The translations under genes were made by a program, and so were the position numbers. A DNA stretch of 64,000 nt from a virus. The stretch covers positions 32,001 to 96,000 of IMG/VR virus record IMGVR_UViG_3300047160_005727; one strand, 5' to 3'. The notes beneath the pieces are model-generated. The model worked only from the letters and a program-made list of their open reading frames with translations, was not told where the DNA came from and searched no databases. Below, piece by piece: positions 655 through 6,356 of this stretch; position 1 is the first letter of the stretch; the number at the start of each line of letters is the position of its first letter.

Positions 655-684
655 GCTAAAGATCGGGCGTTTTCTTGTCATATA
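655..684 (+). promoter_or_regulatory. putative promoter P1, GCTAAA-N15-TGTCATATA
   Basis: The same bipartite motif recurs at 1337-1366 and 2051-2081, each time at the start of an intergenic transcription unit. Confidence 0.7.
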
Positions 685-689
685 GAAGT

Positions 690-1066
690 GTGGGACGCCT
701 ATGTCGTTTCCACCTGCCAGCTCCTGTTCCCTTTTCATGGGAGTCTGTGGCAGTAGCCGATCCTTGGTACGTCACGCTCGTTGCGTACGTATCGCCAAGG
801 TCACGGCAACGGGAAAAGGGCCGGAAAGCTACCGGAGCTGGTTCGGGTTTAGCGACTCTCGGACAGGAGAGGAAGTACCCGAGGCAATATGACTGTGTCG
901 CCTGGTTGACTTTGTGCTGGGGATCGCCGCGTCTAGTCAACGCGGAACACTCCTACAAGGTCAAGACCCGGCCATCCGTAGCAAGACTGCGGAGCGGACC
1001 AGGATGGTTCATGCAACACGGTGGGTACCCGTGCGCTGCGGAAGGGGCTGTCTCCCCTTCTTTTTT
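690..1066 (+). ncRNA. putative structured ncRNA 1, family unknown
   Basis: Nested helices 717-724/834-841, 729-736/813-820, 762-767/795-800, 843-848/877-882, 856-860/867-871, 906-915/955-964, 927-932/940-945 and 975-981/987-993. Lies between P1 and an intrinsic terminator, with no convincing ORF. Confidence 0.6.
1041..1066 (+). terminator. intrinsic terminator
   Basis: GAAGGGG-ctgtct-CCCCTTC followed by T6. Confidence 0.85.
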
Positions 1067-1084
1067 CACTTGCCCATGAAGTGA

Positions 1085-1322
1085 TGTAGCTGGTTGACTT
1101 TCTTGTGTGACATCTTTGAGCTGCCCGGCACCCCCGCACGTCCGCGTGGGGCCCATTACGCCGACGTGGTGGACGCACCACGACGAAGACGGATGGATCA
1201 GTCCAAGGCCAGGCTACCTGCGACAAGACCGCAGGATGGTCGGAGGGGAGGTTCCCTGACCCGACAAGCGACATGGTGATATTCCATGCAACGCGGAAAA
1301 AGGCTAACAACCTTTTTTTTTT
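1085..1322 (+). ncRNA. putative structured ncRNA 2, related to the 3' half of ncRNA 1
   Basis: Shares CTGGTTGACTTT, a CAAGAC-loop hairpin, CAGGATGGT and CATGCAAC with 902-1021. Hairpins at 1165-1182, 1217-1235, 1239-1265 and 1272-1288. Confidence 0.55.
1297..1322 (+). terminator. intrinsic terminator, possibly bidirectional
   Basis: AAAAAGG-ctaacaa-CC followed by a T10 tract. Confidence 0.65.
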
Positions 1323-1336
1323 ACCTATCAGCGGAT

Positions 1337-1366
1337 GCTAAAACTTGGCGCCGGTTCTGTCATATA
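1337..1366 (+). promoter_or_regulatory. putative promoter P2, GCTAAA-N15-TGTCATATA
   Basis: Same boxes and spacing as 655-684, located directly after a terminator. Confidence 0.7.
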
Positions 1367-1425
1367 CCAATGCAGTGCAGCTATGATCTGGGCTGATCAC
1401 CTGGATCGTCAAGTAGCTGTGTTGT

Positions 1426-1464
1426 ACGGCGTGGGGTAGCACCTTGCCCCACGTCGTTTCGTTT
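1426..1464 (+). terminator. strong leader hairpin, possible attenuator
   Basis: 14-bp stem 1426-1439/1444-1457 (with G-U pairs) followed by TTCGTTT, upstream of the ORF at 1494. Confidence 0.45.
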
Positions 1465-2154: not shown

Positions 2155-3087
2155 ATGGCTTCGGTTCAGAGAGTCACTGTCATGGTCGAACGCGATGGTA
2201 TAGGTGTCGAGACCATCACGTTCGAGCGAGGCGGCGACACGAGGATCACTTTGGACCTGTTCGAGAAGCGGTCTGTTTGCTTCTCGGTAAGCAGTCTGGA
2301 TGCCGGTTCTAATGCTCGACCACCGTTGCAAGAGGAACGGATAGCAGAGCCGGCACCCGTGTCGGAAGCAGTGAAAAGCCCGCCGTCATCATCCACACCA
2401 TCCCCGGTCGTTGAACCGGTGGAACCGCCCATGAATGGTGAAGTTCTACATGCGACACCAACAACGCATCTTGAAGGTGCGACTGCGGCCTCGCAAAAGG
2501 CAGCAGAGGGCGAGCGCTGGAAACACTACGATGATGACGATGAGCTATCGGATGATGATCTATCGCGGAAGGCTTCACCGAACTCGAAGGCTACCATGGC
2601 CACGGCGCTGAAGAGCAGGGGCAAGCCCAAGGATCAGCGACGTAGCAATGAGCACCCCGAGTACTACAGGAACCACCACGACTATCGTGGGCCAGACGGT
2701 AGATCGTGGCAGAAGCGCCCCGAGACGCTGACTGCCGAGCCGTTGGCTGTCGAACTGTCGACTCCTGAGTCACCTCCTATGGAGGACTCTGGATCGGCAA
2801 CGGTGGGTGCGGCGCTCTTGGATCCGGTGAAGCCTGGGGTATCCGCGTTCGCTTCGCTGGCTGCCGCGCCGGCTCCTGCTCCGAAGGCGTTCTTGCCGGG
2901 CACGCCCGAGTTCGTGCCCAGGCGGAAGCATCGGGACAGGAAACGAAAGAAGAAGACCAGCCGCAGAAACCAGGGCTGGTACAAGAACAAGTTGCGGGAT
3001 ATCGGGGGCAAGCTCCGATCGTCTCTTGATCTCTTGGGGGACCGTAAGGTTCTGCTTCCGATCGACATTCCTACGCCTTCGTCGTAA
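2155..3087 (+). CDS. hypothetical, largely disordered protein with a basic C-terminal patch
   Basis: AAGGAG SD. Pro/Ser/Glu-rich middle, RRKHRDRKRKKKTSRR near the end, followed by a terminator. Confidence 0.75.
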   Translation: MASVQRVTVMVERDGIGVETITFERGGDTRITLDLFEKRSVCFSVSSLDAGSNARPPLQEERIAEPAPVSEAVKSPPSSSTPSPVVEPVEPPMNGEVLHATPTTHLEGATAASQKAAEGERWKHYDDDDELSDDDLSRKASPNSKATMATALKSRGKPKDQRRSNEHPEYYRNHHDYRGPDGRSWQKRPETLTAEPLAVELSTPESPPMEDSGSATVGAALLDPVKPGVSAFASLAAAPAPAPKAFLPGTPEFVPRRKHRDRKRKKKTSRRNQGWYKNKLRDIGGKLRSSLDLLGDRKVLLPIDIPTPSS

Positions 3088-3090
3088 GTT

Positions 3091-3138
3091 ATGGGGGGAT
3101 GGGACGGCCTGCGGGCTGCCCTCCCCCATCCTTTTTTT
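3091..3138 (+). terminator. intrinsic terminator
   Basis: ATGGGGG...CCCCCAT stem with an inner CGGCC/GGCTG stem, followed by T7. Confidence 0.75.
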
Positions 3139-3156
3139 AACTATCAGGCGGCAGGG

Positions 3157-5133
3157 ATGCTCAAGACGACCCTCGGTCAGATGATGCTGAACGATCAGCT
3201 CCCCGAGGACATGCGGGACTACACCCGCACCCTGGATAAGAAGGGTATCCAGAAGCTGTTCCAGGAAGTTGCCGAGCGGTATCCCGACAGATACCGAGAA
3301 GTGGCCAAGCGGCTCTCCGACATGGGCCGTGATGTTGCCTACTCTACCGGCGGCTTCTCTCCTAGCCTGGAAGACATGCGGCCCAGCAAAGCGGCTGAGC
3401 GCATCAAGGAACAGATCCGCCGGCACGTTCAGCTGATCCAGGCTGACAACCGGATGGATGACGAGCGCAAGTCACAGGCGATCGTTGCTGCCGTGGAAGA
3501 GCGGCAGAAGGAGATGGAGGATGCCGTCTTCGAGGAAGCCAAGGCATCTGGCAACCCCTATGCGCACCAGGTGGTTTCCGGTGCGCGGGGCAGCAAGCTC
3601 AACCTGAAGTCATTGCTGGGCTCGGACATGCTCTACGTCGATCACCACGATCGGCCGATCCCGGTGCCAGTGCTTAACGCATATCCGCGTGGGCTCTCGC
3701 CAGTCGAGTACTGGGCCGGTGCCTTCGGGGCTCGCAAGGGCGTCGCGGCCACCAAGTTCGCCACTCGAGATGCCGGCTCGCTGGCCAAGCAGCTCAACCA
3801 GGTTGCTCACCGGCTGATCATCACGGGCCATGACGACCCGAACGAAGACACATCCACGATCCGCGGGCTGCCGACGGCGACTGATGATCCCGACAATGAG
3901 GGGGCCTTGCTGGCTCATCCGGCCGGGCCGTATGGCCGGAACACGATCTTGACTCCCAAGATCCTCAAGGACCTCCAGACCAAAGGGCATGGCAAGATCC
4001 TGGTTCGATCACCCCTGGTAGGCGGACCGGCTCACGGTGGGGTTTTCGCCCGCGATGTCGGTGTCCGGGAGCGGGGCGGTCTGGCGCCCATGGGTGACTA
4101 TGTCGGTCTGGCTGCTGCGCAAGCTCTCTCCGAGAAGCTATCCCAGGGGCAGCTGTCAGCCAAGCATACCGGCGGTGTCGCCGGTGCCGACAAAGCTGTC
4201 TCCGGCTTTGCTCTTATCAACCAATTGATCCAGGTACCGAAAACTTTTACGGGCGGCGCTACCCATGCCCAGCTCGACGGCAAGATCACGTCGATCGAAG
4301 ATGCCCCCCAGGGTGGCAAGTATGTCAACGTCGGCAGCGAGCAGCACTACATACCGCACGGGCTCGACCCGACCGTCAAGATCGGTGACTCGGTCGAGGC
4401 CGGCGATACCATTTCAGGGGGCCTGCCCAACCCCGCAGAGATGGTCAAGCACAAGGGCATCGGCGAGGGTCGCCGCCATTTTGTCAAGGCGTTCGGGGAT
4501 GCCTACCGGGGCTCGGACATGGGTGCACACCGGCGAAACATCGAGCTTCTGGCCAGGGGCTTGATCGATCATGTTCGGGTAACGGACGAGTTTGGTGATC
4601 ATGTAGAGGACGACATCGTGCCGTACTCGACCATCGAGAAGAGCTGGAACCCGCGCGCGGGTTCCAAAGTGGTCGGACTGTCGTCGGCTGTGGGTAAGTA
4701 CCTCGAACGTCCTGTCCTGCATCACAGCATTGGCACCAGGGTCAAGCCCGGGATGCTTCCCGAACTCAAAGAGTTCGGGGTCAATAACCTGGAGGTTCAT
4801 GATGAACCTCCGCCGTTTGAGCCGACGATGATCCGGGGCCAGTACAACCTCCAGCACGACCCCGACTGGATGACCCGGCATATCGGTTCCGGACTGGAGA
4901 AAGCCACCCTCCAGGCAGCTCACCGGGGCTCCAGTAGCGATATCGCTGGTACGAGCTATGTCCCTGCACTGGCAGAACGTACGCACTTCGGCAGGCAGGG
5001 TCCGACCCAGGGTTGGCACCCGGAGGCGCAGCATTGGGACGACGATGACGATAATATAGGCCACGACGATACGCCAAAAGTGCGGCCCCATACGCCAGCC
5101 GGCGCCAGGACCGCTACCTGGCGGTCTGACTGA
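3157..5133 (+). CDS. rpoC: phage multisubunit RNA polymerase beta'-like subunit, C-terminal half (split subunit)
   Basis: SGARGS motif; GLSPVEYW..GARKG..T..AG.L (bridge helix); VRSPL; GDYVGLAAAQ.LSE..SQ....KHTGG (trigger loop); SBHM-like VKIGDSVEAGD; RRNIELLARGL. No NADFDGD motif. Start placed at the ATG after the terminator. Confidence 0.9.
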   Translation: MLKTTLGQMMLNDQLPEDMRDYTRTLDKKGIQKLFQEVAERYPDRYREVAKRLSDMGRDVAYSTGGFSPSLEDMRPSKAAERIKEQIRRHVQLIQADNRMDDERKSQAIVAAVEERQKEMEDAVFEEAKASGNPYAHQVVSGARGSKLNLKSLLGSDMLYVDHHDRPIPVPVLNAYPRGLSPVEYWAGAFGARKGVAATKFATRDAGSLAKQLNQVAHRLIITGHDDPNEDTSTIRGLPTATDDPDNEGALLAHPAGPYGRNTILTPKILKDLQTKGHGKILVRSPLVGGPAHGGVFARDVGVRERGGLAPMGDYVGLAAAQALSEKLSQGQLSAKHTGGVAGADKAVSGFALINQLIQVPKTFTGGATHAQLDGKITSIEDAPQGGKYVNVGSEQHYIPHGLDPTVKIGDSVEAGDTISGGLPNPAEMVKHKGIGEGRRHFVKAFGDAYRGSDMGAHRRNIELLARGLIDHVRVTDEFGDHVEDDIVPYSTIEKSWNPRAGSKVVGLSSAVGKYLERPVLHHSIGTRVKPGMLPELKEFGVNNLEVHDEPPPFEPTMIRGQYNLQHDPDWMTRHIGSGLEKATLQAAHRGSSSDIAGTSYVPALAERTHFGRQGPTQGWHPEAQHWDDDDDNIGHDDTPKVRPHTPAGARTATWRSD

Positions 5134-5181: not shown

Positions 5182-5493
5182 ATGGCAGCATCCAAGAGAC
5201 CGCGACCGAAGAACAAAGACGGCTCAGACATGAGCACCAAGGACCTGATCCAGGCCGCAGAGGACGCGCAGGCAGCTTTCGACGATGCTTCTGCCCAGTT
5301 CGGAGCGGCGGCACAGCAGGTGCAGCAAGCTCAGACCATCCTCACAGCCGCTAACCAGGCCGTTCACGATGATCTTGCCGAAAACGGTGCGTGCGTCATC
5401 GTCGATGACACGACTTCTCCAGTCACGGTCACGATGTACACCGCCAATGATCCTGACAGCTTCACGGCCACGCCGATCCGCGTTGCGGAATGA
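5182..5493 (+). CDS. small hypothetical protein, paralog A
   Basis: GGAG SD. C-terminal AVHDDL.ENG.C..VD....DPDSF.AT.IRVA is shared with the next ORF. Confidence 0.75.
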   Translation: MAASKRPRPKNKDGSDMSTKDLIQAAEDAQAAFDDASAQFGAAAQQVQQAQTILTAANQAVHDDLAENGACVIVDDTTSPVTVTMYTANDPDSFTATPIRVAE

Positions 5494-5505
5494 TCGGAGG
5501 GTGTC

Positions 5506-5781
5506 GTGCGTGGTAACGGACTGACCACCAAACAGCTGATCGACGCCGCACTGCGAGCCCAGTCGGCGTACAGCTGGTCTGTCATCGTGCTTGGACGGGT
5601 GGCACAGGCTGTCAGGGCAGCCTTTGTCACCGTCCAGGCAACGAGCAAGGCCGTTCACGATGATCTTGAGGAAAACGGGCCGTGCTGCGTCGTGGACAAC
5701 TCGACCAACCCACCCACAGTGACAGCCTATATTCCTGCTGACCCCGACTCATTCATGGCTACTCAGATCCGGGTAGCCTGA
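5506..5781 (+). CDS. small hypothetical protein, paralog B
   Basis: GGAGG SD, GTG start, clear tandem paralog of the previous ORF. Confidence 0.75.
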   Translation: MRGNGLTTKQLIDAALRAQSAYSWSVIVLGRVAQAVRAAFVTVQATSKAVHDDLEENGPCCVVDNSTNPPTVTAYIPADPDSFMATQIRVA

Positions 5782-5804
5782 GACTATTTCGGAAGGAGTC
5801 GGTC

Positions 5805-6356
5805 GTGACCCCGCGAGAGCTAGGACGGCAAGCCGCTCTCTTGCACCTGAAAATGGCCGCAGCCTCGGCGACAACATCATCATCGAGCAGCAGTCCCAGT
5901 CTCAGCACCTCCGGTACTGGAACTCCGACTAGCACTGGAGGTGCAGCTTCGGCAACGACGCTCGGCGCCAAGCCGGGGAACATTGCTCCGGCACCGGCGG
6001 TCCCAAATGTCACGCCGCAGCCTGGCGCAGCGCCGGGTGGCAGTGTGACCCAACCATCGCTCGCAACAACACGACCTGCGCCACCGGCTCCAGCCCCGGC
6101 AGCCCCGGCCGGCGGACTCGGCGCCGGAGCCGGCGCCAGCGCTGGAGGCGGACTCGGCGGTATGCTTGGCGGACTGATGAACCCACAGATGCTCGGACAG
6201 CTGATGGCAGGCCCGCTCAAGGGGCCTGCTGAACAGTTTCTGGGAATGGGTGGCTTTCCGCTTCTGGCTGGTGGAAGCAATGCGCTGCTTCGCGGAGGTC
6301 AAGATATCGGTAATATCATGAAGGGGTCGATCGGTAACGTGAAAGCCGGAGCGTAG
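5805..6356 (+). CDS. Ala/Gly/Pro-rich putative internal head protein
   Basis: AAGGAG SD. N-terminal LKMAA motif, S/T/P linker and Gly-rich hydrophobic C-terminus. Confidence 0.7.
   Translation: MTPRELGRQAALLHLKMAAASATTSSSSSSPSLSTSGTGTPTSTGGAASATTLGAKPGNIAPAPAVPNVTPQPGAAPGGSVTQPSLATTRPAPPAPAPAAPAGGLGAGAGASAGGGLGGMLGGLMNPQMLGQLMAGPLKGPAEQFLGMGGFPLLAGGSNALLRGGQDIGNIMKGSIGNVKAGA

Follow-up and report, generated by a model that had tools for sequence, protein, structure and literature searches.

Among the structured non-coding RNAs of phages and prophages are GOLLD and ROOL, which are 500–800 nt long and whose function is not known. Adjacent, related small-RNA genes with their own terminators are exemplified by PrrF1/PrrF2 and OmrA/OmrB, where read-through could give longer species; these RNAs are short, Hfq-dependent and base-pairing, with conserved seed regions and a promoter for each gene. 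In the giant phage 201phi2-1, 11 small RNAs have a start site closely followed by a terminator; three of them are intergenic, one is conserved across giant phages, and the function is unknown for all of them (PMC11512511). In T4-type phages, repeated promoter/stem-loop units (PeSLs) mediate the shuffling of cargo (PMC2839356, PMC4122927).

The window analyzed here is a stretch of 64,000 nt, bases 32001–96000 of a 141-kb IMG/VR viral contig with an estimated completeness of 68%. We found that positions 655–1322 of the window consist of a phage promoter cassette and two non-coding units that are related to each other and have a hairpin and a T-run at their 3′ ends. Our preferred reading, to which we give a probability of roughly 0.6, is that this stretch would be a self-contained cassette of two paralogous small-RNA genes, carried as accessory cargo by a large uncultured phage that encodes a multisubunit RNA polymerase (RNAP). 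Judged by analogy, the nearest known kind is the small RNAs of 201phi2-1, and the window element appears to be a new family of that kind. As with the small RNAs mapped between genes and in 5′ UTRs of the giant Pseudomonas phages 201phi2-1 and phiKZ, the units are short, run from promoter to terminator, have a predicted fold, are conserved in relatives, and belong to a phage with its own multisubunit RNAP (PMC11512511). The 201phi2-1/phiKZ RNAs, however, are single-copy and have transcript evidence, whereas the window RNAs are tandem paralogues with a shared core and are known from sequence alone; no sequence or model similarity connects the two sets. What distinguishes the window element from the 201phi2-1 set is the tandem paralogous pair, the shared 3′ core, the hypervariable 5′ domains, and the location in a shuffling hotspot. 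The resemblance to PrrF1/PrrF2 and OmrA/OmrB lies in two adjacent related small-RNA genes with a terminator each, but in the window it is a multi-hairpin core at the 3′ end that is conserved, and no promoter is evident for unit 2. GOLLD and ROOL, likewise structured, non-coding, and borne by phages or prophages, are much larger, and no Rfam model matches the window region even at E ≤ 10.

All long ORFs of the window are on the + strand. Positions 3091–5133 encode a C-terminal beta′ fragment of a multisubunit RNAP (Pfam RNA_pol_Rpb1_5), and the closest matches among cultured phages reach only ~25% identity. The RNA cassette is situated between a conserved 84-aa gene (400–654) and a 143-aa gene (1494–1925), which places it within the RNAP gene cluster. 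Its features, and the positions of the homologous cores in related contigs, are collected in Table 1.

Table 1. Features of the RNA cassette in the window and positions of the conserved core in the four phage contigs
Feature	Contig	Position	Strand	Remarks
Promoter cassette 1	Window	655–705	+	GCTAAA at 655–660, TGTCATATA at 676–684, then conserved initial transcribed stretch
Unit 1, fast-evolving 5′ domain	Window	686–898	+	Other phages share only about the first 20 nt, which are part of the promoter cassette
Unit 1, candidate closing helix P1 and variable insert	Window	899–974	+	5′ strand ~899–913, 3′ strand ~956–972; minimum-free-energy pairing; tentative
Unit 1, hairpin A	Window	975–993	+	7-bp stem, CAAGA loop; 5 of 6 modelled pairs compensatory
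Unit 1, hairpin B, short form	Window	996–1010	+	Loop AGGAU
Unit 1, hairpin C	Window	1013–1039	+	Outer GCA/UGC helix, asymmetric internal loop, inner CACGG/CCGUG stem
Intrinsic terminator 1	Window	1040–1067	+	From terminator scan: stem 1040–1061, 8 pairs including 5 G-C, then T-run
Unit 2, variable 5′ domain	Window	1068–1202	+	Candidate P1 5′ strand at 1087–1093
Unit 2, conserved stretch	Window	1203–1216	+	Ends in GGCUA; candidate P1 3′ strand
Unit 2, hairpin A	Window	1217–1235	+	Hairpin with covarying stem
Unit 2, hairpin B, long form	Window	1239–1265	+	Predicted fold; shifted by one column in the model alignment
Unit 2, hairpin C	Window	1268–1294	+	Outer helix GCG/CGC, compensatory to GCA/UGC of the other copies
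Terminator 2	Window	1297–1322	+	A/U-rich, weak stem (two G-C pairs); 10 T follow
Promoter cassette 2	Window	1337–1385	+	Ahead of the next cargo gene (1494–1925); 3′ boundary of the RNA cassette
Core, copy 1	Window	961–1045		Structure-aware alignment
Core, copy 2	Window	1203–1300		Structure-aware alignment
Core, copy 1	L002	4636–4724		No copy 2
Core, copy 1	L133	5501–5583		
Core, copy 2	L133	5713–5837		
Core, copy 1	L161	5583–5672		
Core, copy 2	L161	5756–5861		

The search for homologues started from the 84-aa protein, which has 24 relatives at 65–100% identity in the protein collection, and the contigs of these relatives were examined. Two covariance models were used, R1 from the first three copies of the core and R2 from five copies. 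Seven core copies were found in four related phage contigs, three of which hold tandem pairs and one a single copy; a metagenome contig, L083, is a duplicate, 99.9% identical to the window and from the same phage. All copies occupy the same slot, 3′ of the conserved 84-aa gene, and the four phages share one layout. The 84-aa gene is followed by a promoter cassette, a 5′ domain of 200–300 nt, core 1, and a terminator, and then by a shorter 5′ domain, core 2, another terminator, a second promoter cassette, and the next gene; the exception is L002, where the first unit terminates without a core. Between phages, the 5′ domains could not be aligned beyond the ~20 initial transcribed bases of the promoter cassette. 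At the same slot, the core is absent from nine close relatives (L003, L129, L131, L132, L134, L135, L136, L162, and L163). Model scans of whole records found no core in a complete 226-kb relative (G002), nor in five more distant relatives whose beta′-C is 43–57% identical. Exact-pattern scans of IMG/VR and the GTDB genomes left, after model scoring, only chance matches of ~20 bits, and among the matches listed from the metagenome contigs there were only chance matches and the duplicate L083.

The core that both units have in common is ~90 nt long and consists of hairpin A, a variable hairpin B, and hairpin C, followed by GG and the terminator. It opens with a stretch ending in GGCUA, after which come hairpin A (6–7 bp with a CAAGA loop), a linker of 2–3 nt, hairpin B, which varies among the copies in both length and sequence, a short linker, and hairpin C. 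In the latter, an outer GCR/YGC helix is separated from an inner CAYGG/CCRUG stem by one A facing a 3-nt bulge, and the loop begins with UG. After the GG, the terminator, which has a purine-rich 5′ arm, follows the core with no spacer.

In the alignment of the seven copies, 96% of the cells form standard pairs, and in a control where the partners were slid by 1–3 columns, pairing fell to 24–38%. Ten of the 19 pairs are changed on both sides among the seven sequences, which belong to one narrow clade; this is compensatory change as expected of a structured small-RNA gene, and 0 of 500 shuffles reached the observed values. The statistics of covariation are modest nonetheless, given only seven sequences from a single narrow clade. 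RNAalifold recovered the same helices unprompted. Most of the covariation is in hairpin A, where five of six pairs are changed on both sides. The original prediction had pointed to a hairpin with a changed stem and a kept loop, and this (975–993 and 1217–1235) turned out to be a real feature and the best covarying helix of the core. In hairpin C, a single clean compensatory switch is seen in the outer helix, which reads GCG/CGC in window unit 2 and GCA/UGC elsewhere, and the inner stem is nearly invariant across copies, which suggests that it is read by sequence. As hairpin C hardly varies, its pairing is largely assumed. The G-U pairs of the core are compatible with the + strand only. We also observed that the core is still detectable where the flanking intergenic DNA has diverged past alignment, the neighboring genes being 72–78% identical at the DNA level, which speaks for selection on the core. 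The seven-copy alignment and its covariation thus bear out the claim that two tandem, related, structured non-coding units are present here.

A helix closing the core, here called P1 and formed by the 6 nt before the final UA of GGCUA with an upstream strand, is plausible from modelling and tentative. It covaries in three copies (GCUUUG/CAAAGC, GCCAGC/GCUGGC, and GCCUGGC/GUCAGGC) and is better than shuffles in only three of the seven (L133a, L161a, and L161b, with z of about −2 each); it is ambiguous in the others, including window unit 1. By folding energy, unit 1 is unusual (z −2.9) and unit 2 is no better than shuffles (z −0.67). Five ordered blocks had been described as shared between the two units. 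We located all five where they had been reported, among them CTGGTTGACTTT at 902–913 and 1090–1101, but two proved to be out of register. In unit 1, the block CAGGATGGT (1000–1008) belongs to hairpin B, of which it forms the loop and the 3′ arm, and in unit 2 (1232–1240) it is made up of the linker and the preceding 3′ arm of hairpin A; CATGCAAC covers the linker and 5′ arm of hairpin C in unit 1 (1003–1021) and the 3′ arm and outer helix of hairpin C in unit 2 (1278–1296). In the structure-aware alignment these positions are not homologous, and both blocks are coincidences.

The promoter-like motif that had been noticed ahead of the units is present at 655–684, beginning two bases past the stop codon of the 84-aa gene. 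It is bipartite (GCTAAA, 17–19 nt, TGTCATAYA) and the 141-kb genome contains six copies, each of them on the + strand, where shuffles would give 0.5, a 12-fold enrichment. The spacer of ~18 nt suggests that recognition may depend on a sigma factor; if so, intrinsic terminators would be expected to work on that enzyme. The whole cassette, which includes ~20 nt of conserved initial transcribed sequence, lies 2–4 nt 3′ of the 84-aa gene in most relatives and is also found ahead of most cargo genes. A further copy was seen in the window at 2051–2100, and others in L133 (5259–9530), L134, L161, and L132. In all four RNA-positive phages, promoter cassettes are present both 5′ and 3′ of the RNA cassette, and in the window the second of them makes the downstream gene independent of read-through. 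A promoter cassette directly upstream was found for unit 1 only, and unit 2 lacks one. Of the terminators proposed for the ends of both units, the first was recovered by our scan. The second is present as well, yet it is weak and was missed by the scan criteria on account of having just two G-C pairs in an A/U-rich stem. At the position homologous to terminator 2, strong terminators are found in L002, L133, and L161.

Under the small-RNA reading, transcription would start near 686–690, as presumed from cassette 1, and give a unit 1 transcript of ~380 nt that ends at terminator 1 or reads through to terminator 2. Unit 2, ~250 nt when alone, would be made by read-through of terminator 1 or from an unrecognized start. 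The products would be stable, trans-acting RNAs in which the hairpin A loop and hairpin C, with its invariant sequence, could serve as a platform binding a host or phage protein, and the variable 5′ domain would carry phage-specific content. On this reading they would be accessory, stand-alone, and probably protein-binding small RNAs. The constant order of promoter, 5′ domain, core, and terminator argues for this reading, as does the retention of tandem pairs in three of the four contigs. Points against it are unit 2, with its z of −0.67, weak terminator, and missing promoter, the derivation of the covariation from seven sequences, the failure to find a significant antisense match in the genome of the phage itself, and the dispensability of the RNA.

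The main rival is a cis-acting function, which we regard as possible and distinctly less probable than small-RNA genes. The hairpins and terminators would then act as a double insulator or attenuator that stops transcripts of the upstream RNAP operon or of cassette 1 before they reach the early cargo genes, and one of the polymerases, but not the other, might read through. In favor of this, every core borders directly on a terminator, and no terminator was found between the 84-aa gene and the RNA cassette in the window, so that upstream transcripts would enter the cassette. The same genome also has another promoter, structured leader, and terminator ahead of a gene. However, the same junction is without the element in nine close relatives, a separate promoter precedes the downstream gene, and neither an invariant hairpin C nor a conserved hairpin A loop is needed for insulation. 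Moreover, no antiterminator pairing was seen upstream of the five terminators that were read, those of the window, L002, and L133.

The slot from the 84-aa gene to the beta′-C gene holds different small genes in each relative, and in L133 it contains six promoter cassettes within 4.3 kb. It is a hyperplastic hotspot for cargo, with repeated promoter cassettes as its bounds. Downstream of the RNAs, the genes of the different phages are unrelated to one another. In the window these are the 143-aa gene and a 310-aa gene (2155–3087), which have a homologue in 0 of 14 related loci, RNA-positive ones included, and no match in Pfam; they are therefore cargo specific to the window phage, and no protein is consistently linked to the RNAs. 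For the same reason, the neighboring 143-aa gene was rejected as a candidate for the partner protein of the RNA. The parallel with PeSLs is that hyperplastic regions hold small, variable pieces of cargo, not the same in close relatives, with repeated promoter-bearing cassettes on their flanks. PeSLs are themselves the shuffling signals, whereas here the GCTAAA...TGTCATAYA cassette is their counterpart and has the RNAs among its cargoes: the repeated promoter motif that flanks variable hotspot cargo is supplied by the flanking promoter repeats, not by the RNA. A tree of the flanking genes is nearly unresolved and cannot separate repeated loss from transfer. It puts the RNA-negative L134 beside the RNA-positive L161, which implies at least one gain or loss, and the absence of the RNA from most close relatives shows that it is dispensable.

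This patchy distribution, in which phages with and without the RNA are mixed on a tree of poor resolution, would also be expected if the hairpins were a DNA-level feature or a selfish remnant, that is, recombination or mobility signals of a shuffling cassette whose RNA has no function. That the cargo in the slot differs from relative to relative and has repeated promoter cassettes at its bounds, resembling PeSL shuffling in T4 (PMC2839356, PMC4122927), fits such an account too. We nevertheless consider it unlikely: the compensatory changes keep G-U-tolerant pairing on the transcribed strand, which points to selection on the RNA fold, both paralogues have been kept in three phages despite ~30% divergence, and the ends of the cassette are promoter repeats, not hairpins.

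The core followed at once by a terminator, twice in tandem, is also how a pair of riboswitch-like sensors would look, each an aptamer with its own terminator and both controlling the downstream cargo gene. Tandem riboswitches are known. Here, however, a promoter cassette separates the element from the next gene in four of four phages, these next genes are unrelated between the phages, reading of the sequences upstream of the five terminators found no mutually exclusive antiterminator, and there is no Rfam match; we regard this explanation as very improbable.

Overlapping ORFs are present in the region (675–1079 on the + strand, 134 aa; 933–1310 and 656–940 on the − strand, 125 and 94 aa; and one of 63 codons), and none of them has a match in Pfam. 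With tblastx, the three intergenic regions compared (window, L133, and L002) gave only segments of ≤20 aa, similar in all frames and on both strands, and all of these fall on the conserved core or the promoter cassette. The neighboring 84-aa gene, run as a control, gave 85 aa at 156 bits in a single frame. That one or more small proteins are encoded here, as these ORFs of 134, 125, 94, and 63 codons might suggest, is the least probable of the explanations, since there is no frame-specific conservation between the phages compared and no Pfam match, gene callers placed just 49–53 aa ORFs in the homologous stretches, and spurious long ORFs are expected at 61% G+C. The original view that the region has no credible ORF therefore holds at the level of Pfam matches and protein conservation.

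The whole window had 0 matches in Rfam 15 at gathering thresholds, and at E ≤ 10 only wcaG appeared (14 bits, E 8.4), which is noise; on three homologous loci, only weak matches driven by the terminator hairpins were obtained, none common to the loci. ARAGORN found no tRNA or tmRNA in the window, in agreement with the earlier failure to assign the region to either. The proposal of an undescribed family is upheld by the lack of an Rfam match at either threshold, the homologues in three other contigs, and the compensatory pairs. As far as sequence comparison can tell, the element thus appears to be an undescribed, covariation-supported family of structured phage RNAs, with a narrow and patchy distribution and outside every Rfam family.

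A sponge for CsrA/RsmA, of the CsrB or RsmY/Z type, was considered owing to CAGGAUGG and the many GGA motifs in unit 1, and was rejected. Window unit 1 has 14 GGA motifs against 7.5 expected, and all eight units together have 50 against 45 ± 5, which is no enrichment. The best antisense target in the genome of the phage itself was 13 nt long (E ~0.2–0.5), which is at chance level. None of the functions suggested at the outset, namely a decoy for host defense, a regulator of RNAP, a packaging RNA, or a ribozyme, gained support in the tests that were run, and an essential role, for example in packaging, is made less likely by the patchy occurrence of the RNA in close relatives.

A more specific version of the small-RNA reading, speculative and in our estimate improbable, is that the three-hairpin core would be a scaffold loading a dedicated protein, and the hypervariable 5′ domains interchangeable modules of guide or decoy specificity. 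If this were true, the cassette would be a swappable, RNA-programmed system directed against nucleic acids of the host or of rival phages, or against defense proteins, with two differently programmed units kept side by side. The RNA biology of phages with their own multisubunit RNAP is barely charted, and the element adds a new covariation-supported structured RNA to it, with a scaffold, a variable domain, and a tandem duplicate, on a cassette traded between related phages. Model R2 is a defined means of finding further members. The general reach is limited by the narrow, patchy distribution, as befits an accessory element that is no core part of the phage life cycle.

Several other features were observed nearby and in the relatives. 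In the leader of the 143-aa gene, between the promoter cassette and the ribosome-binding site, there is a hairpin of 14 pairs with a T-rich tail (window 1426–1457). Directly 3′ of the same gene, at 1922–2045, a 17-bp inverted repeat followed by a T-run encloses two sets of short repeats, one with a 9-nt unit (2.8 copies) and one with the 10-nt unit GCAAGCGACA (5.4 copies). This patch could be a large-loop terminator or a protein-binding array; a similar repeat patch is found 3′ of the RNA in L002, at ~4770–4840. Outside the window, G000:C1:104650–105600 (locus L164, 150–1105) carries a promoter cassette, a strongly folding leader of ~150 nt (z −3.9), and a terminator. The gene that comes next encodes 231 aa with a PEP-CTERM sorting signal at the C-terminal end (TIGR02595, 18.4 bits, cut-off 16), and this signal suggests a host that would have an exosortase system.

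In L129, the slot of the RNA is filled on the − strand (5280–5945) by an ORF of 221 aa that has many Cys, His, and Arg residues and no match in Pfam; it may be a mobile nuclease-like gene. Finally, it was observed that the beta and beta′-N genes, viewed in the upstream 5 kb of each close relative, L162 included, are arranged differently from phage to phage. Introns, inteins, or assembly errors could account for the differences: the two genes give a fused product of ~1490 aa in L129 and L161, are separate genes in L131 and L133, and are in several short pieces with gaps in L132.
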